The translations under genes and the position numbers were made by a program. A DNA stretch of 64,000 nt from the NCBI GenBank assembly GCA_002307275.1, contig DBTX01000021.1, forward strand, positions 8,432 to 72,431, given 5' to 3'. This document shows positions 1,342 through 24,703 of the stretch, in pieces; within the stretch, counting starts at the first letter, position 1; every line of letters starts with the position of its first letter. Origin of the DNA: Hungateiclostridiaceae bacterium UBA1305 (GTDB taxonomy: Bacteria; Bacillota; Clostridia; Acetivibrionales; DTU013). A model generated the notes under the pieces. That model was given only the letters and a program-made list of their open reading frames with translations. It had not been told where the DNA came from and ran no database searches.

Positions 1342-1354
1342 TATTAAAATCCCC

Positions 1355-1849: not shown

Positions 1850-1919
1850 CTATAATACCTCCTATAGTTTACACGATCCGATTATTTAGCTTTTTTTCAA
1901 TGCCGCGCAATCCCATTCG

Positions 1920-4699: not shown

Positions 4700-4972
4700 A
4701 TGCCCACTAAAGTAAAAAACATTACATTCTCCCTTCCAACGGAGCTTGTCGATAAATTGAAAGAATATGCAAAAGACCAGCGCATTCCGTCTTTAAATGC
4801 TGGAGTCAAAGAAGCTCTGGAGGAATATGTACTAAAAATCAGCAAGGAAAAATTAAGAAGTGAAATGGTACACGCCTCAAAGGATGTATTGTTTCTGGAA
4901 GATTTAAAGGAGAGTATGAAATCATTTGAATCCTCTGATAATGAGATTTATAAGGGGGAGCCCGAATGGTAA
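4700..4972 (+). CDS. Type II antitoxin (small RHH/MazE-like partner of the downstream PemK/MazF toxin)
   Basis: The ATG at 4700 is preceded by GAGGTGA. The product is 90 aa and its stop overlaps the toxin start by 7 nt. The long upstream extension of track ORF 4286..4972 runs antisense to the AraC gene and is discarded. Confidence 0.7.
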   Translation: MPTKVKNITFSLPTELVDKLKEYAKDQRIPSLNAGVKEALEEYVLKISKEKLRSEMVHASKDVLFLEDLKESMKSFESSDNEIYKGEPEW

Positions 4973-5313
4973 ATTATCAATGGAACATTTTCCGTGCCAG
5001 CCTTGATCCTGTCAAGGGCTCTGAGCAATCCGGCACCAGACCTGTTTTGATCATATCGGCAGAAGAGGCTAATGAATCGCTTCCAATCGTTACGGTTATT
5101 TCATTGACATCGGCTAAGCCAGGCAGAAAGGTATACTTAATTGAATCTTTATTAAAAGCCGAAGATACAGGCCTACCCAGAGATTCAATCGCAATGGCGC
5201 ACCAGATCAGAGCTATATCAAAAGAACGACTTTGCGGAATGTGCGGGCAAATTACCTCGGAAGAAGTGAAGGTTGATATAAAAAGAGCCATAAAATTATA
5301 TCTGGATATGTAA
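4966..5313 (+). CDS. mazF: PemK/MazF-family endoribonuclease toxin
   Basis: 115-aa ORF. IFRASLDPVKGSEQSGTRPVLIIS and AMAHQIRAISKERL match the MazF/PemK core. RBS AAGGGGGAG lies upstream. Confidence 0.88.
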   Translation: MVNYQWNIFRASLDPVKGSEQSGTRPVLIISAEEANESLPIVTVISLTSAKPGRKVYLIESLLKAEDTGLPRDSIAMAHQIRAISKERLCGMCGQITSEEVKVDIKRAIKLYLDM

Positions 5314-5328
5314 GGCAAGATACCTCCG

Positions 5329-5388
5329 CTATGTGGTTCACAGGGACGGGCTCATGCGTGCCGCCCCTATGAGCCACATAGTTTTTCG
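5329..5388 (+). terminator. Rho-independent terminator of the TA operon
   Basis: A 17-nt arm ctatgtggttcacaggg (5329-5345) pairs with ccctatgagccacatag (5365-5381) with 2 mismatches, followed by TTTTTCG. Confidence 0.75.
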
Positions 5389-5651
5389 TGTTGTTTTTGG
5401 ATTTGCATATTGATTATTTTTAGAAAAAAAGTCGGTCACAGGAATCTGCGCTGTGATAGAATCAATTTATCTTAAGATGACAGGAGCGCTCCTTATTGAA
5501 CTGGAGGTCACTGGTTTTTTGAAGAATATCTGCTGGATAAGCCTGAAATCAGCAAGGAAACAGATATGCTGCTGCATATGTCGATAAAACCGAGGAAGTA
5601 AGGTGTTGATAGGGCTGACTATTTGCAGAGTTGGCTATTTGCGGACCTGCC

Positions 5652-5795
5652 AGGCTCAAGCAAAAGTAGGCGGAAAGACAAGGAATTTTCAGGTATGTAA
5701 GGCTCAAGCAAAAGTAAATGAGGAGATAAGAAGTTTACAAGCATATCAGTCTCAAGCACTGGGAAACAAGGATACAATGAGAAGGCCCTCTGTGT
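5652..5795. repeat. Three degenerate 48-bp tandem units in a non-coding gap
   Basis: Units start at 5652, 5700 and 5748, each opening with ag(g/t)ctcaagca. The first 17 nt of units 1 and 2 are identical and the remainder is roughly half conserved. Confidence 0.5.
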
Positions 5796-5854
5796 TGTTT
5801 ATAACATGCGCCTTCTCATTCATCCTATTGATTCCCTGGTACCTAATATTGATG

Positions 5855-6091
5855 TCAAGCCTCCATCTCATCAAACTCAACGGTTTCCAGCAGCTTTTTG
5901 AGCTCCGTTACCTCGTTTTTGTTAAGAGTAACGCCCTTTCCCATTTTTTCATGGGTCTCATCCCAGTCCCTGATGTCCAGCTTCGGTTTACGTTCATTCC
6001 AGCTTACCAGGTTGACTTCCTTTTTCCAGCCTTTTGTCCCTTCCCCAATGACTCCAAGATTCTTTTTGATCTCATACTTTAGTTCTGTCAT
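5855..6091 (-). CDS. PC4/YdbC-like small ssDNA-binding protein (DUF2128-type)
   Basis: 78 aa from the ATG at 6091, with GGAGGGG 6 nt upstream. MTELKYEIKKNLGVIGEGTKGWKKEVNLVSWNERKPKLDIRDW resembles the Lactococcus YdbC / PC4-fold family. Confidence 0.7.
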   Translation of the reverse strand: MTELKYEIKKNLGVIGEGTKGWKKEVNLVSWNERKPKLDIRDWDETHEKMGKGVTLNKNEVTELKKLLETVEFDEMEA

Positions 6092-6411
6092 TTTGAACCC
6101 CTCCATTTTAATTATTATAAGTGCACGATGATTATTGTCACTTAAATACGTAGATTTTTTACCCGGTTCTTTCCTGATTACTAATTACATTATATCAAAT
6201 ATATGGTAATCGAACAAGCGTTCTGGGTAATAGTACAGATATTTTTACAAATTTCCCACTCCATCTATAGTGAGGAATCAATTCATCCTCCGCCTTCGCT
6301 CTCGCTTTGAAAGCAGAGTTGCTTAGAGGCTGGAGACTTCTTGCTGGATTGTTGAAAAATTCTTTTTTGTCGATATAAGGCTAATTCTCTTCTATCGTGC
6401 AGAGTTAAGCC

Positions 6412-8802: not shown

Positions 8803-8819
8803 TACTTGTCCAACCCCTG

Positions 8820-9743
8820 TTATTTCTTATAAACTACTACACAAGTCGACCATCCTGCCCCTTGTACATACACCTTATATCCAGAAGTGTAAAAATACTT
8901 TTCTATCAACTCATAATCAATATCCTCTTTCAGTCTTGCATAATCCATTATTTGATTTACAAAATCACTGCTGAATTTACTTTTTAGTATCTTTTCTGCT
9001 TCCGATAATTGATCATCTATGGAATACCTGAAATGAACCATCATATACAAAACAGCATTTTCATTCATAACTGCCGAAATAGTATGGACTTCTGGTATTG
9101 TAAACCCATTAACAACGTTGGATTTATTCGTATCTATTACCGTCCTCTTTGTCGGATCAATAAGGCAGATAATCATTTTCGACGCTTCGGCTCTCGTCGC
9201 CTTGTCATCAGATCCAAAATCGCCATTAAGATAACCGTTTACAATGCCTTTGCTATAGACTTTTAAAATGTACTCACGATCCTTGGAAGCAGAAAATTTA
9301 TAGTAGTCTTTTATTAGGCTCATATACGCATCCAGATTTTCCGGAAATGTTTCCTTCATCCCCCTGGCTATAATCCTTGCGATCTCGCCCCTGGTGATCT
9401 TCTTCGAATAATCGTTGAATTCTCCGTCTTTAATCAGTCCCAATTCCTTTGCCTTGCTGATATATGGGTCAGCCCAACTCTTGCCAGTGCCCTGCTGCGG
9501 ATTATTCCCCAACGCAATAACCACAAACTTTATCAGTTGGTCCACCTGAAGGTTGTCCTTCGGGCCATATTTTCCGTTGCCGTATCCTACACAGATACCT
9601 TTTTCTGACATTACATCAACGTATGGTTTGAACCAATCCGTACCCTTCACGTCATTGAAGATTATCGGTTGTCCAGCGGATACAGCAGCCCCCAACACGG
9701 TAAAAATAAAAACAATGATTAATAATACTACTGACTTTTTCAT
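8820..9743 (-). CDS. SLH-domain cell-wall-anchored protein
   Basis: The start is placed at the in-frame ATG (MKKSVVLLIIVFIFTVLGAAVSA signal peptide) preceded by AAGGAG. FNDVKGTDWFKPYVDVMSEKGICVGYGNGKYGPKDNLQVDQLIKFVV and a second block ITRGEIARIIARG are S-layer-homology-like. Confidence 0.72.
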   Translation of the reverse strand: MKKSVVLLIIVFIFTVLGAAVSAGQPIIFNDVKGTDWFKPYVDVMSEKGICVGYGNGKYGPKDNLQVDQLIKFVVIALGNNPQQGTGKSWADPYISKAKELGLIKDGEFNDYSKKITRGEIARIIARGMKETFPENLDAYMSLIKDYYKFSASKDREYILKVYSKGIVNGYLNGDFGSDDKATRAEASKMIICLIDPTKRTVIDTNKSNVVNGFTIPEVHTISAVMNENAVLYMMVHFRYSIDDQLSEAEKILKSKFSSDFVNQIMDYARLKEDIDYELIEKYFYTSGYKVYVQGAGWSTCVVVYKK

Positions 9744-9795
9744 ATGTTCACACTCCTTCGAATTTTCCAACCACTCGGAATAAAGAAAAAATAAA

Positions 9796-10848
9796 TCATG
9801 GCCTGCATACGGGACATGCCCTGTATCCTTCCGACGCAGCCTGCTTTTTCGAGTTATAGGTCCCCTCAATTACGGTAATACGGCTGCAGCCTTCCTTGTG
9901 GAAGTACTTTACGCCATTATAGGTACTTCCGATTAAATTGTCTTTCACTGTCAGCTTCGTACCGCCAAAGCCAAAAGTATTATAAATTTTATCCGTTCCG
10001 GGTATGGTAAACCCCTGCAGGAACGATATGAAACAAACATCATCAATGGTATTGTTCCATGTATCCTCCTCAACCATGGGAATATTATAGATGTATCCCT
10101 GCCCATATACCTGTGATAAATAGTTCGCCCTGCTTGTATAGTATTCCAGCTGCATTTGAATCAGCTGGATGATGGTCTGCCTCCGAATGCTGTCGAAGTT
10201 GACTGAAGATGTAAAAAGATTCACCGGGTATATTGCAGCAAGTCGTTCCCTCTTGTCCTGAGTCCAGGCAGCGGTTGAATGATCAAATACATATGCAGAG
10301 TCATCCAGCGTAAAATTGACAGTCAGATTACTGCCGTTATCATAATAGGAATAAGGAATTTTAGGCATCCATACTTCCCTTGTTTCGTATCCGGCTGCAT
10401 CAGCATTGTAGACATTCTGCCATGTGTGTACATACAAGCCGTCATAACCGACTACCATCTGCACAGGCAGATACGCTTTCAAAGAATCCTGCCCTACTTT
10501 GTCTTCTTCTACACCAAAGTTGATGTATACCGTTTCCAAAAACCTGTCCGTCGCTGCCTGAAGATTCAATTCAATATCCTTCGAACTCTTGTGCGCCCCC
10601 TCAAAATACTGATCCCCGGAACTCATAACAGAGCTTCTGCCAGAACTCAAGCCGGAACTTAAACCGGCATTCGATCCAAAATTCTGTACCAGGGCTATTG
10701 TTGCATCCTCACTGGCATTATACATGACCTCATCATAAACCTGTTCCCAGCTCAAAGCCTCAATTTGCCGGTGCTGCTCTATATCGGCGGAGACAGAGAA
10801 CGGAAGGAGCGCCAGTAAAAAGAGTAACGCTAAATCAGTAATCTTCAT
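9796..10848 (-). CDS. Exported protein with a C-terminal Ada-type zinc-knuckle-like motif
   Basis: 350-aa ORF with signal peptide MKITDLALLFLLALLPFSVSA. The C-terminus is FHKEGCSRI...SEGYRACPVCRP. Its start overlaps the upstream gene by 14 nt. Confidence 0.8.
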   Translation of the reverse strand: MKITDLALLFLLALLPFSVSADIEQHRQIEALSWEQVYDEVMYNASEDATIALVQNFGSNAGLSSGLSSGRSSVMSSGDQYFEGAHKSSKDIELNLQAATDRFLETVYINFGVEEDKVGQDSLKAYLPVQMVVGYDGLYVHTWQNVYNADAAGYETREVWMPKIPYSYYDNGSNLTVNFTLDDSAYVFDHSTAAWTQDKRERLAAIYPVNLFTSSVNFDSIRRQTIIQLIQMQLEYYTSRANYLSQVYGQGYIYNIPMVEEDTWNNTIDDVCFISFLQGFTIPGTDKIYNTFGFGGTKLTVKDNLIGSTYNGVKYFHKEGCSRITVIEGTYNSKKQAASEGYRACPVCRP

Positions 10849-11356
10849 TCGTCACCATTCCTCCGGCCTTTGAAAACAGGAGGGAATTCCCGGCCTCACC
10901 GCCTAAAGCCTGTATGAATACCATCGTCCCCGTTTTGGATTTATTGACAACTTCAACACTGATATTGTCGCCCTGGTGCATTCGATACTGGTGTGTCGGG
11001 TCTGCATCCATCTCCTCAATAATTGTATTGATCGGAAACATCTCCTCCACTACCGTAAAGGTATGCTCCGGGGTATATCCCGGATCGGTTGCCTGCAACG
11101 GGTAGTATACTTTTTCCGTATGCACGATCCGGATGTCGTAAACATTTTCCGTATTTGATAGCGTTTTTACAAAATCCTCATACATATCATCGTCAATATA
11201 CCCTTTATGCCTTATATCATTTGCAAATTCCTGTGTCTGCATGTTGACATACTTGAAAACCTGCTGGTCGATAATCCAGTAAGCACGGTACGCAGGCACT
11301 ATCGTTAACAAGATAATTGCAACAATTGACGCGAATAAGGTTGAAAGAGGATTCAT
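10835..11356 (-). CDS. Bitopic membrane-anchored protein, unknown family (minor-pilin or assembly candidate)
   Basis: 173-aa ORF with a single N-terminal TM helix (LFASIVAIILLTIVPAY). RBS GGAGG lies upstream. It sits within the operon. Confidence 0.72.
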   Translation of the reverse strand: MNPLSTLFASIVAIILLTIVPAYRAYWIIDQQVFKYVNMQTQEFANDIRHKGYIDDDMYEDFVKTLSNTENVYDIRIVHTEKVYYPLQATDPGYTPEHTFTVVEEMFPINTIIEEMDADPTHQYRMHQGDNISVEVVNKSKTGTMVFIQALGGEAGNSLLFSKAGGMVTNEDY

Positions 11357-11450
11357 ATGCAGCCTCCGTTGTACACTGTATCAATAGAGAAAACAATCAT
11401 CCGGCATTAACCCAGCGCTAACTCATTTATGATTCATCACTATAAGCACT

Positions 11451-11530
11451 GGCTATTATTTCAGTCAGCTATTACTGCAGTCAGTTGTTACTGCTGTCAG
11501 TGTTATTACAATCAGCTGTTACTGCTGAAC
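11451..11530. repeat. Five tandem units of about 16 bp echoing the stop region of the pilin-like gene
   Basis: The units are ggctattatttcagtca, gctattactgcagtca, gttgttactgctgtca, gtgttattacaatca and gctgttactgctgaac. The last is the gene's own end, with TAA being the complement of 11519-11521. Confidence 0.8.
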
Positions 11531-11935
11531 AAAACTGATAGCTGTAACAATGCCGTTATCATTCGTTGTGAGCGTTGATTTAAAAGTTCCTACAGGGTTA
11601 ATGTATTCACCACTGCCAGAATCGGTAATATCATATTTATTATCTGAATCGTAGTCCACTTTTGCTGCTACCATAATAGTTCTTACACTAACATCCAATA
11701 CGTCGGTCTCGCCATACATTCTCACTGCATTTACAACACTGCTGCCGGATACTTCGGTTCCGTTGTAGGCATCATATTTCTTGGAAGTGATCACCTGGCT
11801 GATTCCCTTGATATCGCTCTCAGAGTTTTTGGTAATGTCCGCACCCTGTCCAAACAGGGCAATCGCGATGGCTATTGCCGCAACAGTAATCAGTACGGCG
11901 GCTCCGAGCTTGATGATTGTTGTAACATTGTTCAT
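11519..11935 (-). CDS. Putative filament subunit / pilin-like protein (non-canonical)
   Basis: 138-aa ORF. It has a short polar N-terminus followed by a hydrophobic helix (MNNVTTIIKLGAAVLITVAAIAIAIALFGQG) and then a beta-rich Ser/Thr/Asp domain. It lies directly downstream of the platform gene, and the RBS is GGGGGATAGG. Confidence 0.55.
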   Translation of the reverse strand: MNNVTTIIKLGAAVLITVAAIAIAIALFGQGADITKNSESDIKGISQVITSKKYDAYNGTEVSGSSVVNAVRMYGETDVLDVSVRTIMVAAKVDYDSDNKYDITDSGSGEYINPVGTFKSTLTTNDNGIVTAISFVQQ

Positions 11936-11965
11936 TTCCTATCCCCCCATAAATTAATGAATTTA

Positions 11966-14029
11966 TCACATTAACTGCTTCTGTATAGACGAAAAAGCAG
12001 TAAATGACGAAAAAATAATCGGCAGTGCCATATATAGAAGCAGAACGGCATAAACCGGAATAAAACCAATCAACTGGCCAAACTCAATTTTCTTGTTAAT
12101 CTGCTGCTTATTGGATTCCTTTCTGCTTTCCTTGTAAAACTCCCTTTCCAGTTCCAGAGCATCAAATGCCGCAATCAGGCTGATATCCTCATTTGCCATC
12201 TGCAAATTATCAATAATTTTGACAAACGGTTTAAATTTTACGTCTTCTTTCAGCCTTTCGAGAGCCAGGTTCTGATTCTGGAAATTGGTCAGGCACAGTT
12301 CTATCGGTGCCCTGAATATATTGGCAAATTCCTTCATCCATTCCAGTACGACCTTAACATCCACATTGTCGTGATGCATCAGAAGAATGATGATCGTATG
12401 GAATTGAAATACCTCATCCTCCATATCAACCTTTCTGAGCGACGCCTGAAAGGTAAGCAATATCATCGGGAACCAGGATGCAGCACCCGCAATGATCAAG
12501 GATAGCAAGACCTCCCATAACCGGATAGTTTCTTTTTTACTGTCAATGATTTTTAAGCAGATTCTTTGTGCTGTCAGCTCCTGATCTTCTCCCTCATAGC
12601 TCATGGAAACAAGTTCCGCTTTGGCAGCAGCCAGTATATCCTCTGCCTTTGAGAGTCCCATGCTTCCGATTTCTCCAATGATGGAAGCATCCAGTTCCCT
12701 GATTTTCTTATCATTTAGAAGTTCTTCCTCATCCAACCTGCCCATCATCCGGAAAAAGTTGGCATTATCGATTCCATAGGCAGTGTCCGCCATAATTTTT
12801 TCAACATTCGTACGATGCCCGGAGGAGAACACAGCAAGCATGATGATAAAGACAGAAATAGCGTATATCAGTCGCCGCAGGTACAGACCCTCGACCGTCA
12901 TGGCAGATCCTGCATCATCTTCCAGAAAGGATTTCAATTTGCGATACTTTACGGTATTCTGCCTTGGAGTAAAAATGTTCACAAAAAACCGTATGAAGCC
13001 TATTCTGTTGAGGTAATAATCCCAGGTCTTTTTATAACATACTTTCACTTTTTGTTCCGTCTTTTGGATCTGAACAATGAATACATAGCATACAATAATA
13101 ATCAAAAAAATGGAGCATCTTAAATAAAACCCGGTTGCTGAATCATAAAATGACGATACAATTGGGAAGCCAGACCTCATCCATGATTCGATTACCGGCG
13201 GCAGCAGCAGCGGAAACAGCACAATGATGTTCAGGCCGCGCAGCCAATAAGCCAGTTGGTTCTTTTTAATGATTTCTATCTGAATTTCTTCTGTAATATA
13301 GTTCAGATTTTTGATATACAGAGAAATGCCCTCAATCTTTTTATCTCCAAAATCCTGTACCAGGTAAGAGAAGCCGGCAAATATCTTCAGGAATTTATTT
13401 GAACATGTCTCGTAATACTCCTTCAGCATATACTCCGGGTTTGCCCCCGTCAGAATATTGTAAATCCTCGTGCCCTGATTCAACATTTCACCTGCTGTAC
13501 GTAAATTAGCCTGCTTAATGGCCTCGCCCACCATGGCCGTAGCATGGTAGAAATGCTTGACATCACCTACATAGTCAACCATGGCCGCCAGCAACCTTGT
13601 ATCGGAATTGCCTGCAAAGCTTTGTATGATCATACTGTTGAGGTAAATGCAGCAAATGCCGAATAACAGCATTGTCCAGAGGTCCGCTTGATACAGCCGG
13701 ACAAGCACGAAGAACGTGACAATTGATGTCAGGATAGAGCCGAATCCAAGCAACACGGATTTTGTATCCAGATTGGTTATCGAAGAATTACCGCCAGGAG
13801 AAAGCTGCGACCTTACCCACCTCAAATAACTGCCTATGACCGGTTTTTCATAAAGGGATTCACATCCGGATCCTGTCCAAGTCTTCCTGCTTAAGCCTCT
13901 GGTATTGATCCTTATATAATTACGGTTGGCGTTTTCAAGCCTGTTTGCTATAAATAAAGCTGCCAATGCGATAGCAATCACAAGCCCGCCGGCAGAAAAC
14001 AGTAATATTTTCGACACCGCTATCCGCAC
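11966..14029 (-). CDS. Polytopic inner-membrane platform protein, TadB+TadC-like (two GspF/T2SSF-like modules)
   Basis: 687-aa ORF with two repeats of a helical cytoplasmic region flanked by TM helices. It lies between the ATPase and the pilin-like gene. The start is uncertain: GTG at 14029 or GTG at 14017. Confidence 0.6.
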   Translation of the reverse strand: MRIAVSKILLFSAGGLVIAIALAALFIANRLENANRNYIRINTRGLSRKTWTGSGCESLYEKPVIGSYLRWVRSQLSPGGNSSITNLDTKSVLLGFGSILTSIVTFFVLVRLYQADLWTMLLFGICCIYLNSMIIQSFAGNSDTRLLAAMVDYVGDVKHFYHATAMVGEAIKQANLRTAGEMLNQGTRIYNILTGANPEYMLKEYYETCSNKFLKIFAGFSYLVQDFGDKKIEGISLYIKNLNYITEEIQIEIIKKNQLAYWLRGLNIIVLFPLLLPPVIESWMRSGFPIVSSFYDSATGFYLRCSIFLIIIVCYVFIVQIQKTEQKVKVCYKKTWDYYLNRIGFIRFFVNIFTPRQNTVKYRKLKSFLEDDAGSAMTVEGLYLRRLIYAISVFIIMLAVFSSGHRTNVEKIMADTAYGIDNANFFRMMGRLDEEELLNDKKIRELDASIIGEIGSMGLSKAEDILAAAKAELVSMSYEGEDQELTAQRICLKIIDSKKETIRLWEVLLSLIIAGAASWFPMILLTFQASLRKVDMEDEVFQFHTIIILLMHHDNVDVKVVLEWMKEFANIFRAPIELCLTNFQNQNLALERLKEDVKFKPFVKIIDNLQMANEDISLIAAFDALELEREFYKESRKESNKQQINKKIEFGQLIGFIPVYAVLLLYMALPIIFSSFTAFSSIQKQLM

Positions 14030-16053
14030 CTCCCTGAACTCTCTTCCAAGTTCCCGAATTCCTTGTCCAGGAAGGCGGCAAACAGTTTTTGATCCTCCCT
14101 CAGCATGGCTTTCGCCATCGCCTTTCTATTACTATCGCTTATCCTGTTCTTCACGACATAGGCGTTTTCAATCAGATCATATTCTATGATGTTGCGGTAA
14201 GTGTATGAATGTCCGCCAAGCATTCTTTCATAATAGCGGTACTGAGCTTCCTTGATCAGTCTGTCAAGGTTACTCGGGTCGTTGTCGTTGCTGCTATTAC
14301 TGCTACTGCTGTTACTACTGTTGCTGTTATTTCTGTTGTTGCTACTGTTGCTGTTATTGCTGCTGTTATTGCTGCTGTTACTGCTGTTGCTGTTATTGCT
14401 GCTGTTGCTGCTGTTGCTGCTGTTGCTGTTATTGCTGTTGCTGTTACTGCTGCAGTTGCTGTTACTGCTATTGCCGCTATTTTCATTACTGTCATTATTT
14501 GTTTTATAACTGTTCCTGCTGCAATCGTCTATATCGAAATCACCGGGTTCAAAGGGAATACATTCTGTTATCCTCTCAATATAACGCTTGCCGGATATAT
14601 CTTTTTCCATGTGTATATCAAAATTCAACACACTTATGATTTGCTCCTCTGCGATACGTTCATTATTAAATACATTGGTTTTAAGCAGAGAATTACGCAG
14701 GGACATTACCAAATCGGGAAACTTCTTTGCATGATGAGAAAACAGGGTAAACAGGCTTGCAACCTGTGCCGTTTGTATCATATATGCCGCTACCGGATCT
14801 GTGGCTACCTCGCCCACGATCGTTACGACGCCGTCGGTTTTTTTCAGTACGTCAAGCCCGGCCTGTCCGGTTATCGCGTCTGTTTCCTGGATGGTAACAA
14901 TGTTTCTGTTGGGATAGCTTTTGCGCACATGAAGTTCAAAAGCCATTTCCAGGATCCGGAGGGTATACGGCGTATAAATATGTTCTATCATGGCGCGCAG
15001 AAGTGTAGTTTTCCCTGATCCCTGGGCGCCCGTGACACTTGTGTTCATGCTTCCTTTCACGAGAAATCCGATCAGTTCAATAACAAGATCACAGTTCTTA
15101 TCTTTGATAAGTCCCGGAAGTGATATGTCCGGAAGATCGAATTTACGGATGAAAAAGCACCATGTTTCACAGAAGTCCGGCCTCAATACCACGACCCTTG
15201 AACCGTCCTTCAGCTTATTTACTTTGAAGCCGTCCACTTTGGAAAGCTGACCAGGATAGCCATATTTATACACGTTTTGGCATACCCTTTGAAGTTCGTC
15301 ATAGCTGCCAAGGGAAAGGAATTTTAAATGAATGCTTTTCCCTTGAAAATACAGCCAGATACTTTCATAGGAACGAACCGCTCCGGTATTGGCCACAGAT
15401 TCATACTCACTTTTGTGTTCCTGGACAAACGATTCCGGCAAACCGTTCACACCGCAGCTTAACCCATCGACCTGCATATCCATAATGTCGTCGATGACAT
15501 TATAGCCTTTATAGAGTGAATACACTCTTTGAACAATGATGTTATATTTGTCTTCATAAGTTATTACCGGTGATTCCCGTTTATAGATACGGTTGATGTC
15601 ATCCATGTCTATAAAGAAATACTCCACATCCTCAGTTTTTCTAAGCAAATCAAGATCATATTTCCTGATCAGGACAGAAAGTGCCTTATAGCCGTATTCT
15701 TTCTTGTACACATGCAGAAGGATGTCGAATTTATCCTGCACCGATAAATGCTCTACCCTTTCAAATGGAATAATATTATTGATTTTAATTGAAGTGATAT
15801 CGTAATATTGCTGCAGCAGTTCCTTGATAAACTCCTTGACAAATTCTTTATCCGGTTTGGAGCCATATATGCAGTCGTTCAGAGCAGCCTGCAGCCGTGA
15901 CTTTTTATTTTGCTTTCTTTCAAGCTCAACGCTTGTTATACCCAAGTCAAACAGCTTCAATTTCATCAGTTCATCAACTGCCTGCTGAACAAATTCCTTC
16001 ATTTGCGGTATATTGTAATTTAGCATTTTGCCGGTGTCTATCGTTAATTCCAT
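14020..16053 (-). CDS. Long CpaF/TadA/VirB11-type secretion ATPase with an Asn/Ser-rich insert
   Basis: The start is set at MELTIDTGK, with GGAGGG upstream. It has Walker A GAQGSGKTT, IVGEVATD (Walker B/Asp-box region) and FSHHA (His box). An N-terminal extension of about 330 aa precedes the core. The C-terminal region holds a run of about 75 residues of N/S. Confidence 0.85.
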   Translation of the reverse strand: MELTIDTGKMLNYNIPQMKEFVQQAVDELMKLKLFDLGITSVELERKQNKKSRLQAALNDCIYGSKPDKEFVKEFIKELLQQYYDITSIKINNIIPFERVEHLSVQDKFDILLHVYKKEYGYKALSVLIRKYDLDLLRKTEDVEYFFIDMDDINRIYKRESPVITYEDKYNIIVQRVYSLYKGYNVIDDIMDMQVDGLSCGVNGLPESFVQEHKSEYESVANTGAVRSYESIWLYFQGKSIHLKFLSLGSYDELQRVCQNVYKYGYPGQLSKVDGFKVNKLKDGSRVVVLRPDFCETWCFFIRKFDLPDISLPGLIKDKNCDLVIELIGFLVKGSMNTSVTGAQGSGKTTLLRAMIEHIYTPYTLRILEMAFELHVRKSYPNRNIVTIQETDAITGQAGLDVLKKTDGVVTIVGEVATDPVAAYMIQTAQVASLFTLFSHHAKKFPDLVMSLRNSLLKTNVFNNERIAEEQIISVLNFDIHMEKDISGKRYIERITECIPFEPGDFDIDDCSRNSYKTNNDSNENSGNSSNSNCSSNSNSNNSNSSNSSNSSNNSNSSNSSNNSSNNSNSSNNRNNSNSSNSSSSNSSNDNDPSNLDRLIKEAQYRYYERMLGGHSYTYRNIIEYDLIENAYVVKNRISDSNRKAMAKAMLREDQKLFAAFLDKEFGNLEESSGRCG
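14278..14505. repeat. Imperfect trinucleotide (GCT/GTT/ACT)n tract encoding poly-Asn/Ser
   Basis: The plus strand reads ...gttgctgctattactgctactgctgttactactgttgctgtt... for about 230 nt. Three additional track ORFs in other frames and strands (14209..15018, 14252..14509, 14256..14495) also run open across it. Confidence 0.9.
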
Positions 16054-16118
16054 CAGTACCCTCCTGCCTGTCTTCAATGTACCCTTTGGGAAGCTGATAT
16101 TGCAACCTTACAAATCAC

Positions 16119-17003
16119 TCACCTGTACACACCGAACATTTTGTCAAACATCGTCTTTTGGACCAGCGGGTTATAGGTGTTTACATCATCAAGTCTGAAC
16201 AGGCTGATGATTTTGCTGATAATGACATCGAGACATTTCATAAAGTCAGCATCGGTATCCGGCATTTTCTTTTTCATCTGGATATCCGTAAAGTATTTGA
16301 GTATATCATGCTGGTTTATAGCATCCATGAACTTTACATTCCTTGGTATGACGAATAGCTCGCCATAATAGTCAAACTCCCTGCGGATCCGTTGGATATC
16401 GAATATTGAATTTTCATCATAATTCCCCAAAATCAGCAAATGCGGCTTATCCTCTATCACAGGATTCCACTCCCTGCGTTCAAAGTACGTCCGCAGAACT
16501 TCCATATTCTGACTTAGACTGACGATCAGAATATCAGCCAGATCAAGGGGCTTCGTAGACAATTCTCCATATCCTGCGTTTATATCGAGTATGACGAATT
16601 CATACGCTCTACGGGCACAGTTTACAATATAGGTGATCTGTTCAAGCAGACGCCCGCTTGAATGACTATCCCTCCGGGTCGTTCCCAAAAGAAGCTCCAG
16701 TCTGTCCGGGATAAAGATATTTGCATAATCCCTGAAGTTGGCGGCGCAGAGCTGGTTTGTCCTTGCGAGCTTCATCAGGGCATCCATTCCGGATTCATCA
16801 AAGATATTGGAGGTAGTATTGCTGTTGGAACTATCCGCAAAAAATGCATTCTCCAGATTACTCTTGCTTATACTGTTGTGCATCAGCAGGATCCTGAAAG
16901 TACGTGTAAGCGCCAATCTCACGGCTATAGCCATAGCATTTGAGGTGTTGCAGGTTTGTCCGTGAAAAGGTGACCATACTCCGATCAACAATGATTTCAT
17001 CAC
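16119..17003 (-). CDS. TadZ/CpaE-like ParA/MinD-fold protein with a degenerate P-loop
   Basis: 294-aa ORF. IGVWSPFHGQTCNTSNAMAIAV sits where MinD/ParA proteins carry GxKGGxGK[ST]. Later blocks FVILDINAGYG and ADILIVSLSQNMEVL fit the fold. It overlaps the upstream gene by 4 nt. Confidence 0.65.
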   Translation of the reverse strand: MMKSLLIGVWSPFHGQTCNTSNAMAIAVRLALTRTFRILLMHNSISKSNLENAFFADSSNSNTTSNIFDESGMDALMKLARTNQLCAANFRDYANIFIPDRLELLLGTTRRDSHSSGRLLEQITYIVNCARRAYEFVILDINAGYGELSTKPLDLADILIVSLSQNMEVLRTYFERREWNPVIEDKPHLLILGNYDENSIFDIQRIRREFDYYGELFVIPRNVKFMDAINQHDILKYFTDIQMKKKMPDTDADFMKCLDVIISKIISLFRLDDVNTYNPLVQKTMFDKMFGVYR

Positions 17004-17893
17004 CGTGTTCTACCTCCTTGTGCCTCTTTTGTGGCTGCTTGACTATCTGTGGTTATATTCTGCAAATTTCCGTCCCCCACGTCCTGCCTGACACCTGTAG
17101 ATGCGGATGTGGATACAGATGGAGATGCTGCAGGTTCCGATTTAGCAGACTCAACTGAAGATATTGATGCTGCAGGTATTGATTTAGCTGGCCCGGTTGC
17201 AGCCTGTGTCCCAGGTGTCGTAATCTTAACCGGTACATAGGTGACCTCGGAAGCCGGCTGTTTCTCATCAAGGTACAGCAGCGATTCTATATGCCCAAAA
17301 CCAGCAGACTGTTCTGCTATTGCGTGGTTGATAAGAGCCCTCTCGGCTGTTGATACCTGTACAATTGCTTTATTATCCGTTAATTTGATGACTTGTTTTT
17401 TAGCCAGAACAATGAAGGTATCCCCATTGGATCTGACCATTTCAACATCGATCCAGTCACCGGCCTTTACCGTGTCTGCTACAAGATAGCCTTGCAATGC
17501 ATAATCCTTCAGTCTGTCATCCGGGTTAACCGAGCTTTGCGAAGACAGTATTCTCGAATCCGTCAGTACCTCTTTCATATCAATGACAGCAGCTGCTCTC
17601 TGGCCTGTTATCATCCCGATGTCTATCATAGAATTGGTTGGTACTTCTTCCTGATTTCTCTCTTCCAGTTGAAAGAATTCAGGCTTCAGTTCGTCCCCCT
17701 TTTCGATTCTTTGTACAGACACCAGAACCTTGGTCTTTTTCAGATCATCAGCTGTTTGTATAGGAAGACTCACACTTTGGATCTTTCCTGCATCCACAAG
17801 CTTGTTATAGAGAAAGTATCCCCCTGCAAGGAGAATAACTGCCGCCATAAAACCGGATAAAAATATGAAAAATTGCTGTTTTCCTCTGCTCAT
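17000..17893 (-). CDS. CpaB/RcpC-like SAF-domain pilus assembly protein
   Basis: 297-aa ORF with an N-terminal TM helix (FFIFLSGFMAAVILLAGGYFL) followed by KVLVSVQRIEKGDELKPEFFQLEE...ITGQRAAAVIDMKEVLTDSRI, which is SAF/CpaB-like. The C-terminal tail is low-complexity and A/S/T/P-rich. Confidence 0.72.
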   Translation of the reverse strand: MSRGKQQFFIFLSGFMAAVILLAGGYFLYNKLVDAGKIQSVSLPIQTADDLKKTKVLVSVQRIEKGDELKPEFFQLEERNQEEVPTNSMIDIGMITGQRAAAVIDMKEVLTDSRILSSQSSVNPDDRLKDYALQGYLVADTVKAGDWIDVEMVRSNGDTFIVLAKKQVIKLTDNKAIVQVSTAERALINHAIAEQSAGFGHIESLLYLDEKQPASEVTYVPVKITTPGTQAATGPAKSIPAASISSVESAKSEPAASPSVSTSASTGVRQDVGDGNLQNITTDSQAATKEAQGGRTR

Positions 17894-19138: not shown

Positions 19139-20881
19139 CTATTTCCCCGGAATTGCGCCCGATGACTGAAACACATTACCAAAGATGGCCGACCGGAATT
19201 TTTGCAGCAGCTTCAAATCAGATATCAACCCCATCCTTACTAAAAGCCGGATATACGCCTGCTCAATGTCCTTTTCCATGCGCACGGCATAAGCGCCGTT
19301 CAGATTTCTATGCAGCAAACGCCTCCTGCTATATGGAATTTCCCCGAGAAAATTTCCATGAACCGCTTCTCTGGCTTCATCCGGAGTTATACTGCTGGTT
19401 TTGTCATATTCGAAAAGAACAAATTGAGTACGGTGAACACAAAGGTGCTGCTTCTCCTTCAAGAATTCAATATAAGTGTTGAATTCCCGCAGCTGATCCA
19501 CATCTCCCCGAAGTGCCGCAATATTCATATCTGATCCGAGGAGTGCCGCCAGCGTAAACGCATCGTATATGGATCTGTTAACAAGAAATATTGTAATATC
19601 AAACCTTCGATAACACTTCTCAATCAATTTTGGAACAATATCTTCATTAAAATATTCATAATTCTCCAACCGGTAATTGCCTGTCAGCACATGCAGGTTT
19701 TTCAGATCCTTTCTTTGTACGGCTGACTGCTGCAACACCTCATCATCCAATGAGCCCTTTTCCAGTGCGTCCATGACAAAATCCAATCCTGAACGTCCAT
19801 ATACTCCTCCCTGTGATAATTTCACAGGAAACTTCTTCAGGTTAAGAAACAAATCCGCTTTCGGTGCCAGCAAATCCAAATCTGCCAGAAGCACCTCGCT
19901 TTTTGTATGTTTCGCTGCCATATATGCCAGCTCACAGCCGAATTCTGCATTATCCCATACGGTAATCACAAGCTTTCTGAAAATGGCATGCTGCTTTGCT
20001 CCAAAACCTGTACTTACAGCATTTTCTTCAGGTTCACCCTGCACAGTCCGGTTGGCTGTATGAGAATTTTCCGGATTGTTACCGCTGTGCAATTTACCGT
20101 GCAGAGGGCACAAAGCCTCAAGCTCCTTTTGCAGAAGCGCCGCACTCTGATAGCGTTCAGATGCGTTTTCGCGGGTACATTTACATATGATTGCTTCCAT
20201 TTCCGGCGAAAGCTCCTCAACAAATTGCCGGACAGGTTTTATTCCATATGGTGAATCCGCCGGATTCTTCCCTGTCAGCAAATGATGCAATGTTACTCCC
20301 AGACTGTAAATGTCGGAGGCTGCACTGGTCTGCCCCCTGCCATATTGTTCCGGAGCCGCAAACCCCCGTGTACCTATATAAACCGTATCCCCTCCGGACC
20401 GTGCTTTATATTCGCGCGCTATCCCGAAATCAATTAGTTTAAGTGTTCCATTGTCCGTCAATATGATATTTGAAGGTTTCATATCCCTGTAGATGATCGG
20501 ATGCGGTTCGAGGGTATGGAGGTAATCGAGCGCCCTGCATAATTGTACAGCCCATTGTGTTACTGTTTCCTCCGCTATTCGGCCTTCTGCTTCAAGTTTT
20601 TTGTCAAGAGATATTCCATCTATATAATCTGAAACCATGTACAGTTTCCCATCCTGCACAAGTATATCGAATAATCTTGGCAGTGCGGGATGTTCCAGCC
20701 GTTTTAAAAGCTTTGGTTCGGCCAGCAGATCGACATCGGTACCATCCCTCCGGATGATTTCCTTAATCGCCCAGAAGGTATCGGTATTGATATTCTGAGC
20801 CAGATAAACCGTACCCATGCCACCCTGACCCAGTATCTTCAATATTCTATAGCGCCCGTCAAAAATGTCGCCCGCCTGCAT
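19139..20881 (-). CDS. Hanks-type Ser/Thr protein kinase fused to a P-loop-less ParA/TadZ-like domain
   Basis: 580-aa ORF. The kinase signatures GQGGMGTVYLA, AIKEI, HPIIYRDMKPSNIIL, DFGIARE and GFAAPEQ are present. The C-terminal half (LVITVWDNAEFGCELAYMAAK...ITIFLVNRSIYD) resembles ORF 16119..17003. Confidence 0.85.
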   Translation of the reverse strand: MQAGDIFDGRYRILKILGQGGMGTVYLAQNINTDTFWAIKEIIRRDGTDVDLLAEPKLLKRLEHPALPRLFDILVQDGKLYMVSDYIDGISLDKKLEAEGRIAEETVTQWAVQLCRALDYLHTLEPHPIIYRDMKPSNIILTDNGTLKLIDFGIAREYKARSGGDTVYIGTRGFAAPEQYGRGQTSAASDIYSLGVTLHHLLTGKNPADSPYGIKPVRQFVEELSPEMEAIICKCTRENASERYQSAALLQKELEALCPLHGKLHSGNNPENSHTANRTVQGEPEENAVSTGFGAKQHAIFRKLVITVWDNAEFGCELAYMAAKHTKSEVLLADLDLLAPKADLFLNLKKFPVKLSQGGVYGRSGLDFVMDALEKGSLDDEVLQQSAVQRKDLKNLHVLTGNYRLENYEYFNEDIVPKLIEKCYRRFDITIFLVNRSIYDAFTLAALLGSDMNIAALRGDVDQLREFNTYIEFLKEKQHLCVHRTQFVLFEYDKTSSITPDEAREAVHGNFLGEIPYSRRRLLHRNLNGAYAVRMEKDIEQAYIRLLVRMGLISDLKLLQKFRSAIFGNVFQSSGAIPGK

Positions 20882-21148: not shown

Positions 21149-21422
21149 GGGTCACTTCTGATTGAGGTCCGGTGTATATTGGATTGCTCCTGATTGAGGT
21201 CCGGTGTATTGGATTACTCCTGATTAATATCCGGTGTATTGGATTACTCCTGATTAATATCCGGTGTATTGGATTACTCTTGATTAATATCCGGTGTATT
21301 GGATTACTCCTGATTAATATCCGGTGTATTGGATTACTCTTGATTGATGCCCGGTGTATTGGGTCACTCCTGATTGATACCCGGTGTATTGGGTCACTCC
21401 TGATTGAAGTCCGGTATATATT
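21149..21422. repeat. Nine phased units of about 30 bp: eight echoes plus the genuine 3' end of the PflX-like gene
   Basis: Units start at 21149, 21181, 21211, 21241, 21271, 21301, 21331, 21361 and 21391. Three central units are identical (ggattactcctgattaatatccggtgtatt). The last unit contains the gene's stop, TGA being the complement of 21394-21396. Confidence 0.95.
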
Positions 21423-22497
21423 GCTCGGAAGCAGATTCCCTGTCCTGTACAAAGCCATTAAGACCAAGCTTTGCGAATTTATAGGTCACCTTTTCATACT
21501 CGTACCTGGTAAGTCCCCTGCCAAGGACAGGATGCCCACAGGCCTTGTAGCAGGGAGTATACTGGCTCATGAGGCTTACATTTATATCTTTGGGAAGGTT
21601 TTCAGATATCCATTCAAGGACGCGCAGCGTTTCTGCCGTATGACCCGGCAGAACAAGATGCCTGATGATCATGCCGCGCGTCATTAGCCCGCTTTCGTCA
21701 AATTCGGACATGCCGACCTGCCTGTGCATTTCGAGTATCGCTTTGGAAGCTTTGTCAAAATAGTCTTTTGCTCCTGAATACTCCTTTGACACTTCCGGGC
21801 TGATGTATTTGAGATCCGGCAGGTAAATGTCGATGGATCCATCCAGCATTTTTAATGAATTCAGGCTATCATAACCATTTGTGTTATAAACGACGGGGAT
21901 ATCGAGAGGCCTGGGTTGAGTAACGAAATTTGGGACAGGAGCAGCAGGACAGTTGGATTGTCCGCCTCTTTGGACAGAAACAGGAGGGACGAAGGTAGCG
22001 GGAAAGGGAGGGACAGAGGGACAGGTCCTCTGTACCGGAACAAAAGCAAGTGGAACAGAGGACTTGTCCCTCCATCCCTCATACTCGGGCCTTTCCCTCC
22101 GTCCCTCATGTCCCTCCGTCTCCCATGCCGCTCTCGCCAGATCCAGCGCTTCCTTGATGGCAGGCACAAAATGGGAGGGTGTTACAAGGTTTATATTATG
22201 CGCGCCTTTATCCTGCAAAGACAGGAATATTCCTGCAAGCTCCATTATGGACATTTCTTTGCCGATGCCGCCGTGACTGATTTCATGATTCTGACAGAAG
22301 ATGCACTTTAAATTGCAGCCGGAAAAGAACACTGTGCCCGAACCGCGTGTTCCGCTGATACAAGGTTCCTCCCACATGTGCAGAGAAGCTCTTGCAACCA
22401 CTGGCTTTTCTCCCATACCGCAGAACCCTTTGCTCTTTTCCCTGTCGATATCACATTCTCTGGGACAAATATTGCATTTCATACCGATATTCCTCAA
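21394..22497 (-). CDS. PflX-like radical-SAM protein (pyruvate formate-lyase activase homologue, COG1313-type)
   Basis: 367-aa ORF. CNICPRECDIDR...FCG, ASLHMWEEPCISG and FFSGCNLKCIFCQN (CxxxCxxC) are typical of the family. An atypical insert of about 73 aa lies at residues 125-197. Confidence 0.85.
   Translation of the reverse strand: MRNIGMKCNICPRECDIDREKSKGFCGMGEKPVVARASLHMWEEPCISGTRGSGTVFFSGCNLKCIFCQNHEISHGGIGKEMSIMELAGIFLSLQDKGAHNINLVTPSHFVPAIKEALDLARAAWETEGHEGRRERPEYEGWRDKSSVPLAFVPVQRTCPSVPPFPATFVPPVSVQRGGQSNCPAAPVPNFVTQPRPLDIPVVYNTNGYDSLNSLKMLDGSIDIYLPDLKYISPEVSKEYSGAKDYFDKASKAILEMHRQVGMSEFDESGLMTRGMIIRHLVLPGHTAETLRVLEWISENLPKDINVSLMSQYTPCYKACGHPVLGRGLTRYEYEKVTYKFAKLGLNGFVQDRESASEQYIPDFNQE
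21907..22125. repeat. G+C-rich imperfect palindrome inserted in frame in the PflX-like gene
   Basis: On the coding strand, GAGGGA-type motifs repeat in one arm and TCCCTC-type motifs in the other. For example, GGGAGGGACAGAGGGACAGGTCCTCTGT faces ACAGAGGACTTGTCCCTCCATCCCTC. Besides the gene frame, four other track ORFs cross parts of it. Confidence 0.75.
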
Positions 22498-22608
22498 TTT
22501 TCCGCTTTTATTGCTTTACAACACCTATAAATAAAAATATAATAAGGTTAATTATCATACATGTCAATATAACAGGTGAGTTATACTAAGGGCGTGGAGG
22601 ATTGGAAT

Positions 22609-23559
22609 ATGAGAATAAGCGGCGTTACATATGCAGTCAGGAGAACCCATACAGCACGTAATATTATATTAACCATCATTGTTCTGTTGCTTCTCTCAAT
22701 TTTAGCAGTCATCATACTGTCGGGATACATGAGCTGGACACTGCTGCACCCTGAAAAAAAGCCAATAGATACGTTTTCATCAAATATTGTTCCTGAATAC
22801 AGAAATATCAGCTTCAAAAGCACCGATACGTCCATCATCCTAAAGGGCTGGCTTTTCCAGGCAAAGAACAGCGACAAGGCAGTAATCCTTGTACATTCAT
22901 ATGGCAATAACAGACTGCAGTTCGGCATTAAAACAGTTGATATGATAAAGTCATTTCTGAATAAAGGATACAGCGTATTCACCTTCGACCTGAGGAACTC
23001 AGGAGAATCCGGCGGGAAGGACACTACCTTCGGCTTAAATGAAAAAGAAGATGTAATAGCCGCGATAAAATATGTGAAATCCCAGGGATCCAGCCACATC
23101 ACTCTGCTGGGATTTTCGATCGGTGCTTCGGCCAGTTTGCTTGCCGCAGAAAATGATTCAGTGGATGCTGTCATCGCTGACAGCCCTTATGCCGATCTTA
23201 AGACCTATCTGTCTCACGGCCTGAATAACTGGACACATTTGCCTTCAATTGGTTTCAACTACACAGTTGAGAAGTCACTGGAACTTGCAGGCGACCTTGA
23301 TATGAAAAACGCAAGCCCTGTCAATACGCTGACTGCGGAAAACCCGCCGTATCTGATGCTGATACATGGCCGCGGAGATAAATTGATACCGATCGAAAAC
23401 AGTATTGAGTTAAATCAGAAATATTCGGCCCTGAACTCCAAAGGTTCTGAATTCTGGACGACTGACGATGACGGTGATGCTGCAAGCTATATAAAAGATC
23501 CGGATGAGTATATGAGCAGGGTCTTCTCTTTCCTTGAAAGGGTGTACCCTCAGGAATGA
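22609..23559 (+). CDS. Membrane-anchored alpha/beta hydrolase
   Basis: The ATG at 22609 follows GGAGGA. An N-terminal TM helix (IILTIIVLLLLSILAVIIL) is present, with nucleophile-elbow motif GFSIGAS and the downstream pattern ...IHGRGDKLIP. Confidence 0.8.
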   Translation: MRISGVTYAVRRTHTARNIILTIIVLLLLSILAVIILSGYMSWTLLHPEKKPIDTFSSNIVPEYRNISFKSTDTSIILKGWLFQAKNSDKAVILVHSYGNNRLQFGIKTVDMIKSFLNKGYSVFTFDLRNSGESGGKDTTFGLNEKEDVIAAIKYVKSQGSSHITLLGFSIGASASLLAAENDSVDAVIADSPYADLKTYLSHGLNNWTHLPSIGFNYTVEKSLELAGDLDMKNASPVNTLTAENPPYLMLIHGRGDKLIPIENSIELNQKYSALNSKGSEFWTTDDDGDAASYIKDPDEYMSRVFSFLERVYPQE

Positions 23560-23812
23560 TTCCATATAGGATGCACTTCTGCAATATCCGTAACTCTATC
23601 TGTTTTACTTTTCCATTGCAAAGTGTAAATAAATAGTGCTAATTTATTATATCTCCGTAACTCATTTTACGATATAATTCAATTGGAATATTATTGTACT
23701 ATTAAGTTTCTTTTGTTACTATATTTCGAGTATTATATGTTATCATTGGATTTTTGGAGATATTACACAGTTTATATGGTAGTAGCAGTTTATAGAAGGA
23801 AGGTTGATTTTG

Positions 23813-24703
23813 ATGTCACGTGGCTATAGTATAAACAATTTATACGGTGTGAATGGCATCTATGGCATAAACAACATATATGGCGTTAACAGTTACAATA
23901 ATTACATCAGCAGTTTGACCAGTAACAAAACTACTTCAACCTCCAGTCAATCCAATACATCCTTGTTGAATTCCCTTTATTCAAAATACTTAAACAATAC
24001 TGCATCTGCATTGAGCAGCAAGACCGTTACATCAACCGACAGTGATACGGTAACCGCAACAGCCCAGCAGAATGCAACCATAGGATCATACTCCGTCAAA
24101 GTTTCAAATCTTGCGACCGCCCAGACAAATACAGGTACGTCCCTATCCGCCAATAATCCCTCAGTGATTGGAACCGGTCTGGACATCCTGAGGATAAACA
24201 GCGGAACAGCCAGCAGAAATATCTCGCTTGTGATCAACGATACGGACACAAACAAAACTGCCCTTACCAAGCTCGCTTCCGCCATAAACAAATCAGGTCT
24301 GGGTATAACCGCAAGCGTTACAACCGATTCAGCCAATAAAGCCTCACTGACACTGGAATCTGCTAAGACCGGTACAAGGAACGCCTTTTCAATTTCCGAC
24401 CTGCAAGGTAATGCTGTATCCGCAACAGGCATCGGAACGGCGGATACCAAGGCACAGAACGCGACCTATTCCGTAAATGGTCATCAATATACTTCATCAG
24501 GTAATACTGTAAGCCTGGATAGCGGCAAAGTACAGGCAACGTTGAAGGAAGTCGGCGATACGGCAGTGAAACTGAGCGTCACCCCGGATACTTCAACAAG
24601 TTCAACCAATACGTATTATTCCTATATCAACAATCTGTTGTCTGCCGGAAACTACTACAATTCAAGCCTTAACAGCGGAAGCCTGCTGGATATGTTCCTG
24701 TAA
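23813..24703 (+). CDS. Orphan FliD-like (filament-cap central-domain-like) protein
   Basis: The ATG at 23813 follows GAAGGAAGG. GSYSVKVSNLATAQTN and NATYSVNGHQYTSSGNTVS resemble the conserved FliD head-domain strands. The protein lacks the long terminal coiled-coil regions of the 643-aa FliD nearby. Confidence 0.55.
   Translation: MSRGYSINNLYGVNGIYGINNIYGVNSYNNYISSLTSNKTTSTSSQSNTSLLNSLYSKYLNNTASALSSKTVTSTDSDTVTATAQQNATIGSYSVKVSNLATAQTNTGTSLSANNPSVIGTGLDILRINSGTASRNISLVINDTDTNKTALTKLASAINKSGLGITASVTTDSANKASLTLESAKTGTRNAFSISDLQGNAVSATGIGTADTKAQNATYSVNGHQYTSSGNTVSLDSGKVQATLKEVGDTAVKLSVTPDTSTSSTNTYYSYINNLLSAGNYYNSSLNSGSLLDMFL

Follow-up and report, generated by a model that had tools for sequence, protein, structure and literature searches.

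The 64-kb window analysed here (64,000 nucleotides of contig DBTX01000021.1 from Hungateiclostridiaceae bacterium UBA1305) carries an open reading frame (ORF) in which a Hanks-type Ser/Thr kinase is joined through a linker to a ParA/MinD-like domain followed by a short C-terminal tail (Table 1). This fusion gene stands at the head of a compact block of co-directional pilus genes, the position of operon leader given to it in a preliminary description of the sequence, and it lies directly upstream of a gene for a TadA/CpaF-type secretion ATPase. Scans of the region with promoter and terminator consensus sequences gave counts no higher than those of shuffled sequence, and no usable start site was found. 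Very probably, it encodes the protein that takes the TadZ/CpaE position in a Tad-like (type IVc) pilus locus of Clostridia, a protein in which the Walker A and B motifs have been lost and the receiver domain has given way to a Hanks kinase.

The N-terminal half of the protein includes a domain (residues 11-252) that matches Pfam PF00069 (Pkinase) at 173.3 bits (cut-off 31.7; E 8e-51). The complete set of Hanks signatures that the preliminary description attributed to this half could be located motif by motif: GQGGMGTVYLA (residues 18-28), AIKEI (38-42), YRDMKPSNIIL (131-141), DFGIARE (151-157) and GFAAPEQ (173-179). The corresponding catalytic landmarks are the glycine-rich loop (18-23), K40, E55, YRDMKPSN (131-138), DFG (151-153), the activation-loop threonines 166 and 171, and APE (176-178). 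Among 48 fused orthologues, the glycine-rich loop, K40, E55, YRDxKPxN (with D133 and N138), DFG, the activation-loop Thr and APE are at least 95% conserved. Judged by these sequence features, the kinase half looks catalytically competent. The best NCBIfam model for this half is that of PknB/Stk1 (NF033483), with 183.8 bits over residues 4-280 against a family cut-off of 450, and Pfam detects no PASTA repeats in the fusion protein. No transmembrane segment was found either: the highest 19-residue Kyte-Doolittle mean in the protein is 1.32 and lies inside the core of the ParA-like fold, in agreement with the earlier proposal that no membrane span separates the two halves and that the kinase is soluble. 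The linker contains no hydrophobic segment and accounts for most of the spread in length among orthologues (561-726 amino acids).

The C-terminal half escapes sequence-based classification. Residues 299-555 gave no Pfam or NCBIfam match, and PDB sequences were matched neither by the window sequence alone nor by a profile of the family. A homologue search with residues 299-580 returned 34 proteins, all with VWDNAEFGCELAY. Structure prediction and a single stepping-stone relative (locus L061, discussed below) were the sole routes by which fold and homology could be revealed. The AlphaFold2 model, built from 29 homologues, has a predicted local distance difference test score (pLDDT) of 88.4 and a predicted template modelling score of 0.86. 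Foldseek comparison of this model with the PDB returned 176 chains at E <= 0.001, and each of the 50 best belongs to the MinD/ParA superfamily. The top match is 3ea0 (E 1.7e-12, template modelling scores 0.69/0.80), with MinD 6riq at E 8.8e-12; further matches include MinD 4v02, Borrelia ParA, Soj, FleN and FlhG. The MinD/ParA-like character suggested earlier for this half is thus upheld by structure prediction.

Nevertheless, the nucleotide site of this superfamily appears to be missing. In the model, strand beta1 (LVITVW, residues 304-309) is connected to the next helix (312-325), the counterpart of the one that comes after the P-loop in MinD, by the two residues D-N alone (LVITVW-DN-AEFGCELAY), which argues that the P-loop has been deleted and not merely mutated. 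The motif WDNAEFG (309-315) occupies the place of the Walker A loop, as the preliminary description had noticed, the P-loop itself being reduced to a two-residue turn in the model. The deviant Walker A motif (K)GGxGK(S/T) is absent, and a GxxxxGK[ST] motif occurs in just one of the 157 family representatives covering the region. The acidic residue of Walker B is also absent: the sequence at this point is ITIFLVNRS (LVN, residues 433-435), Asn435 is invariant in the family, and the Walker B aspartate of L061 (FIFID) aligns with Val434 of the window protein. The Pfam CbiA and AAA_31 models do not match the window protein; its homologues match them repeatedly below threshold, the alignments starting at profile positions 16-22, after the P-loop. 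With Walker A loop and Walker B acid both apparently lost, the ATP-sandwich dimer typical of the superfamily would not be able to form, and the domain very probably persists as a highly conserved, nucleotide-independent scaffold. Identity with bacterial tyrosine kinases (BY-kinases) was considered and rejected, since the Walker A, A' and B motifs of these enzymes were not found and the P-loop is absent; weak matches to CapB/BceF (E 0.03-0.2) were obtained with the distant relative L061 alone.

The genomic position of the fusion gene is highly consistent. Scanning of species-representative genomes with the domain alignment yielded 60 loci; in nearly all of them, and wherever the sequence extends far enough, the fusion gene is directly followed by a TadA orthologue. 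The canonical order, seen in L002, L068, L069 and more than 40 others, is fusion gene, TadA (T2SSE), TadB and TadC (T2SSF), a Flp-size gene of about 75 codons, two small genes and a CpaB-like gene with SAF/RcpC domains. This block is usually flanked by FlaG-FliD-FliS-FlgN on one side, and by an AraC-family regulator and aconitase on the other. A further member (L003, identical to L051; positions 68-16423), of the receiver (REC) type, heads a canonical tad operon immediately after Tcp/Tn916-like conjugation genes encoding an integrase, FtsK/SpoIIIE, TcpC, TcpE, a VirB4-like AAA_10 protein and an M23 peptidase; it is a second case, besides the one described below for the window, in which Tad-like loci of these bacteria are linked to conjugative elements.

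Sister architectures point to the origin of the fusion. In family members without a kinase, the N-terminal profile matches response-regulator receiver domains (E 1.2e-5 to 1e-3), and the distant relatives L061-L063 combine REC with an intact AGAGAVGKS loop. The L061 protein passes the Pfam CbiA and AAA_31 cut-offs, and its gene precedes that of a TadA homologue; aligned with this protein, the domain profile gives an hhalign probability of 98.95% (E 1e-17) over 248 columns that begin just past the L061 P-loop. Since its sisters carry REC and its distant relatives keep the P-loop, the fusion appears to be a TadZ-position protein that lost ATP binding and exchanged REC for a kinase. In a rough neighbour-joining tree, the P-loop-bearing forms fall outside the kinase-fused ones, as does one REC form that lacks the P-loop (L060). 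Although this tree is crude, the likely order of events is a REC-ParA ancestor, loss of the P-loop and then replacement of REC by the kinase. The comparison with TadZ/CpaE made in the preliminary description therefore proves apt, given the TadA-type ATPase gene downstream, the REC-bearing sisters and the alignment to a relative with both REC and P-loop. The presence of FlhG and FleN among the structural matches, together with flagellar genes a few kb upstream, might instead suggest a flagellar regulator of the FlhG/FleN/MinD type whose linkage to pilus genes is incidental. This is very improbable, because the fusion gene is always co-directional with and directly precedes the TadA-type ATPase gene, also in loci without flagellar neighbours, and because the sisters have the REC plus ParA layout of TadZ/CpaE.

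The fusion itself is authentic. A concern raised at the outset was that an assembly error or frameshift might have joined two genes, and the close relative P0001 (locus L070) is indeed called as two genes, of 207 and 284 amino acids. However, that split arises from a 10-N scaffold gap (L070 5685-5696) which shifts the frame; it could pass wrongly for evidence of separate genes. Moreover, independent samples yielded four contigs with an identical 580-residue protein, among them one of 111 kb from JGI and one from a Logan assembly, and tblastn with frame tracing found kinase and domain in one uninterrupted ORF (561-726 amino acids) in 48 of the 60 loci. An artefactual origin is therefore practically negligible as an explanation.

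The kinase-scaffold fusion is a widespread conserved family. The 60 loci are all from Clostridia and nearly all from metagenome-assembled genomes (Oscillospiraceae, Hungateiclostridiaceae, Acetivibrionales, 'Clostridiaceae'), with Lutispora in addition. A profile search of 1.84 billion representative proteins recovered 464 family members at E <= 0.001. Among 171 cluster representatives of the family, 54 are fused to a kinase, 56 have another N-terminal domain of at least 120 amino acids and 61 are short or fragmentary. The first homologue search under-reported the fused proteins, which are the majority in genomes; the probable reason for the few fused proteins returned by this word-indexed search is that the 90%-identity cluster of the window protein is represented by a 43-residue fragment, named 'ATPase family AAA domain-containing protein 3A/B'. 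The ratio of non-synonymous to synonymous substitution rates (dN/dS) against the nearest relative, L004, is 0.13 for the whole gene, and the values for its parts (Table 1) show that both domains are under purifying selection.

Downstream of TadA, the operon of the window is chimeric. In place of the canonical genes it carries a cassette encoding a CpaB-like protein, a stand-alone MinD/ParA-like protein of 294 amino acids, a second, divergent ATPase and four further proteins (Table 1), an arrangement found after TadA only in the window, L004 and L005. The same cassette, with the CpaB-like gene first and with neither kinase nor TadA, occurs on other metagenomic contigs (L064-L067) beside conjugation genes (TrbL, TraC-like, VirB4-like, C39 peptidase and Toprim topoisomerase). 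The surroundings of the window locus match the canonical chromosomal site, with flagellar, abhydrolase and radical-SAM genes to one side and the AraC and aconitase genes to the other. The match between cassettes, the canonical flanks and the dN/dS values together indicate that a cassette of the conjugative-element kind replaced tadB-cpaB, and that the kinase-scaffold-TadA pair was kept under selection. The possibility that the cassette genes are diverged orthologues of TadB, TadC, Flp and the rest was rejected, as they have no BLAST similarity to the canonical set and match the other cassette.

Table 1. Features of the fusion gene and of the chimeric operon, with positions in the 64-kb window (aa, amino acids; dN/dS against locus L004)
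Feature	Position	Strand	Remarks
Fusion gene, whole ORF	19139..20881	minus	580 aa + stop, ATG start; kinase, linker, P-loop-less ParA/MinD-like domain, tail
Hanks-type kinase domain, residues 11-252	20126..20851	minus	Pfam Pkinase E 8e-51; dN/dS 0.09
Interdomain linker, residues 253-298	19988..20125	minus	hydrophilic, unconserved; dN/dS 0.57
MinD/ParA-fold pseudo-ATPase (scaffold) domain, residues 299-555	19217..19987	minus	AlphaFold2, Foldseek, hhalign; dN/dS 0.10
C-terminal basic/hydrophobic tail, residues 556-580	19142..19216	minus	low-confidence helix in model
TadA/CpaF-type secretion ATPase, 405 aa	17890..19107	minus	Pfam T2SSE E 1.8e-22; best NCBIfam match is TadA-family ATPase
CpaB-like SAF-domain protein, 297 aa	17000..17893	minus	Pfam SAF and NCBIfam CpaB, both weak; first cassette gene
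Stand-alone MinD/ParA-like protein, 294 aa	16119..17003	minus	no Pfam match; AlphaFold2 and Foldseek
Second divergent T2SSE-type ATPase, 685 aa	14020..16077	minus	Pfam T2SSE E 5.8e-6; Walker A GAQGSGKT
Polytopic membrane protein, 687 aa	11966-14029	minus	no Pfam match; about 680 aa in L064-L067
Pilin-like protein, 138 aa	11519-11935	minus	no Pfam match; gene order as in L064-L067 and in L004/L005
173-aa protein, N-terminal hydrophobic segment	10835-11356	minus	no Pfam match
350-aa protein, N-terminal hydrophobic segment	9796-10848	minus	no Pfam match; about 333 aa in L064-L067

In full, the cassette comprises about nine genes (window 6412-17893, minus strand), with a cell-wall-domain protein and a protein of about 720-850 amino acids in addition to those of Table 1. 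The cassette gives the impression of a so far undescribed module for a type IV filament that belongs to conjugative elements of Gram-positive bacteria. Its second ATPase contains a Ser/Asn-rich low-complexity insert of about 75 residues (window ~14270-14500, minus strand), and the cassette orthologues of this ATPase in L064-L067 (586-599 amino acids) are about 90 amino acids shorter. On the strand opposite to the second ATPase gene lies a spurious Val/Ala-rich ORF of 269 amino acids (14209-15018).

The stand-alone 294-residue protein, which carries VWSPFHGQTCNTS, had been taken for a paralogue of the fused domain with the same degenerate pattern. The common MinD/ParA fold holds, its model (pLDDT 72.8) finding 3ea0 as top Foldseek match (E 9e-10), but the pattern differs and the two modules are of different origin. 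The 294-residue protein has a loop of P-loop length without lysines (SPFHGQTCNTS, versus SGKGGVGKTTS in MinD) and retains the Walker B aspartate (ILDINAG), whereas in the fused domain the loop is deleted and LVN stands in the place of the latter. Direct similarity of the two is marginal, with a BLASTP E of 0.06 and an hhalign probability of 19% (E 0.0012), and recent paralogy was rejected. Only 13 homologues of the 294-residue protein were found, always encoded between the CpaB-like gene and the long ATPase gene, and the most plausible reading is that this protein serves as the TadZ-like component of the cassette itself.

Several other genes accompany these loci. In L002, L007-L044, L068 and L069, as in the window (3638-4522, minus strand), a conserved AraC-family regulator gene closes the tad locus at its distal end; it is 80-90% identical across many loci and 65-77% in the most distant, and genes of the aconitase family (leuC-like) usually come next. 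The locus might be controlled by this regulator. On the other side, frequent companions of the fusion gene, seen in many loci, are a radical-SAM gene (21394-22497, minus strand) and an alpha/beta-hydrolase gene of divergent orientation (22576-23559). The radical-SAM protein of the window has 367 amino acids, compared with 293 in L002, the extra segment being apparently Pro/Val-rich and located mid-protein. A 30-bp tandem repeat (21154-21419; 8.8 copies, 90% match) lies in and just upstream of the 512-nucleotide gap between the radical-SAM and kinase genes and overlaps the listed 3' end of the radical-SAM ORF. Finally, a short second FliD-like gene (FliD_N only, 299 amino acids; 23804-24703, plus strand) is located between the flagellar late genes and the hydrolase gene, and is also present in L002, L005 and L039.

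What the fusion protein does is a matter of graded probability. On balance, the best overall explanation is that of a TadZ-position kinase-scaffold acting at the pilus motor, a reading we favour with some reserve. How such a protein would work is more tentative still, and the proposal that it is docked at the motor and uses phosphorylation as a switch is made by analogy. In Caulobacter, six CpaE dimers surround CpaF as a ring; CpaE makes contacts through its REC domain and ends in an amphipathic helix (PMC13170226). The docking model is drawn from this arrangement. The pseudo-ATPase domain, perhaps aided by the C-terminal tail, would dock at the cytoplasmic face of the machine beside the TadA hexamer, concentrating the kinase on motor and platform. 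The kinase would autophosphorylate its activation loop, at the conserved Thr166/Thr171, and could next phosphorylate TadA, the platform, the CpaB-like protein or neighbouring copies of itself. If a kinase held at the motor does phosphorylate the machine, phosphorylation would replace the ATP-dependent dimerisation and REC-REC switch of TadZ/CpaE. Throughout the family the tail is basic and hydrophobic, its sequence being variable, and in the AlphaFold2 model that of the window protein forms a helix of low confidence (model residues 258-270). A membrane-targeting amphipathic helix, as in MinD/CpaE, is a possible function for it, membrane binding being inferred. A more elaborate version, in which the kinase-pseudo-ATPase forms a phospho-regulated ring on the TadA hexamer that gates extension/retraction or assembly/disassembly, and which in the window has been re-coupled to the conjugative-type cassette as a hybrid two-ATPase machine, seems improbable.

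Several observations weigh against a phosphorylating TadZ-position component. At the level of the domain, E. rectale TadZ (3FKQ) is absent from the 50 best Foldseek matches, and the Pfam and NCBIfam sequence models of TadZ/CpaE do not match. Hydrophobic-moment analysis of the tail shows nothing outstanding for an amphipathic helix. In the window as a whole, no homologues of TadB, TadC or Flp are present, and no gene for an FHA-domain protein or a PP2C phosphatase was found among the larger ORFs. Moreover, the kinase is not uniform within the family. A divergent clade of the fusion (including P0099, P0180, P0085, P0081, P0124 and P0168; scaffold domain 22-33% identical to that of the window) shows a catalytic loop of the non-RD type (LHLDIKPxN) and lacks the glycine-rich loop, and at least two members, P0089 and P0091, have lost the catalytic Asp, the Lys and DFG and are pseudokinase-like. 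This divergent clade also heads a tad operon with an AraC regulator at its end (L068). The non-RD clade and the two apparent pseudokinases suggest that catalysis is perhaps not the universally conserved function.

These divergent forms, a large clade with HLD for HRD and the two that have lost the catalytic residues, would be expected if the kinase domain were a dimerisation or protein-binding module replacing the receiver, for example through back-to-back kinase dimers, phosphotransfer being secondary or dispensable. The CpaE receiver domain mediates dimer-dimer contacts, and a structural role would therefore be expected of any domain at its position. However, the clade of the window keeps all catalytic residues at the level of conservation given above for the 48 orthologues, with a dN/dS of 0.09, as is typical of an active enzyme, and a purely structural role for this kinase seems unlikely. 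It is likewise doubtful that signalling runs in the opposite direction, the scaffold sensing the state of the pilus machine and the kinase relaying it to the AraC regulator or the flagellar late genes, as in a switch from motile to attached life. The location of the locus between FlaG-FliD-FliS-FlgN and the AraC regulator in many taxa, shared by the window, would suit such a circuit, as would the lack of a machine-linked FHA or phosphatase gene. Nevertheless, synteny is all that speaks for it, and some loci have no flagellar neighbours: L068 follows clpX, and the REC-type L003 follows conjugation genes.

These proteins are of wider interest. TadZ/CpaE is the least understood core part of the Tad pilus and is thought to act through ATP-dependent dimerisation and receiver contacts. 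In the fusion family, ATP site and receiver are both dispensable in the TadZ position, yet the domain is strongly conserved at the same place in the operon, which suggests that the ParA-like domain acts as a scaffold without need of a nucleotide. The family offers a natural case of separation of function for the role of TadZ. It also suggests that, in Gram-positive anaerobes, the motor of a type IV filament is controlled directly by phosphorylation, a situation not described in the literature searched. A TadZ-position pseudo-ATPase with a Hanks kinase in place of the receiver hints at a so far undescribed means of coupling a pilus motor to phosphorylation. Database names for the fusion proteins give only 'serine/threonine protein kinase', leaving about 280 residues without domain assignment. 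Full-text literature searches found no description of a fusion of TadZ/CpaE with a kinase, the nearest oddity being the TadZ-TadA protein of Bdellovibrio considered below.

Compared with TadZ/CpaE (TadZ of A. actinomycetemcomitans and E. rectale, CpaE of C. crescentus), the fusion shares the position of its gene directly upstream of tadA/cpaF, the MinD/ParA fold of its C-terminal domain, the REC plus ParA-like layout of its sister proteins, and a basic/hydrophobic C-terminal tail. It differs in the apparent deletion of Walker A (K/RGGxGxS/T) and the predicted loss of the Walker B acidic residue, in having a Hanks kinase where TadZ/CpaE has an N-terminal atypical receiver, and in remaining undetected by TadZ/CpaE sequence models. 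ATP-dependent dimerisation, reportedly shown for E. rectale TadZ, would not be possible in the same way in the fusion, since Walker A is deleted and the Walker B acid lost.

Kinases dedicated to envelope machines are known from other systems. In the archaellum, ArnC/ArnD exert control by threonine phosphorylation. Variants of the type VII secretion system (T7SS) include kinases (PMC11217815). The fusion resembles these archaellum and T7SS-variant systems, and PpkA/PppA/Fha1 of the type VI secretion system (T6SS), in that a Hanks-type kinase is genetically dedicated to a machine whose assembly or activity it presumably gates. However, the T6SS, T7SS and archaellum kinases are separate proteins, often membrane-anchored and usually with FHA partners and a nearby PPM phosphatase, whereas the fusion kinase is soluble and tethered to a scaffold domain, with no linked FHA or phosphatase gene. 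The PASTA kinases PknB/Stk1 have the same Hanks catalytic core. The fusion differs from them in lacking a transmembrane helix and PASTA repeats, in scoring far below their family cut-off and in having a cytoplasmic, MinD-like C-terminal half.

The closest parallel in architecture is TadZA of Bdellovibrio bacteriovorus, in which a TadZ without receiver domain is fused to TadA (bioRxiv 10.64898/2026.07.08.737194). In both proteins a receiver-less TadZ-type domain and an enzymatic module are combined in one polypeptide, so that an organiser is coupled to a second activity. TadZA has the TadA motor itself as its C-terminal partner and retains a Walker A-like motif, whereas the fusion described here carries a Ser/Thr kinase at its N-terminus and has lost the P-loop.

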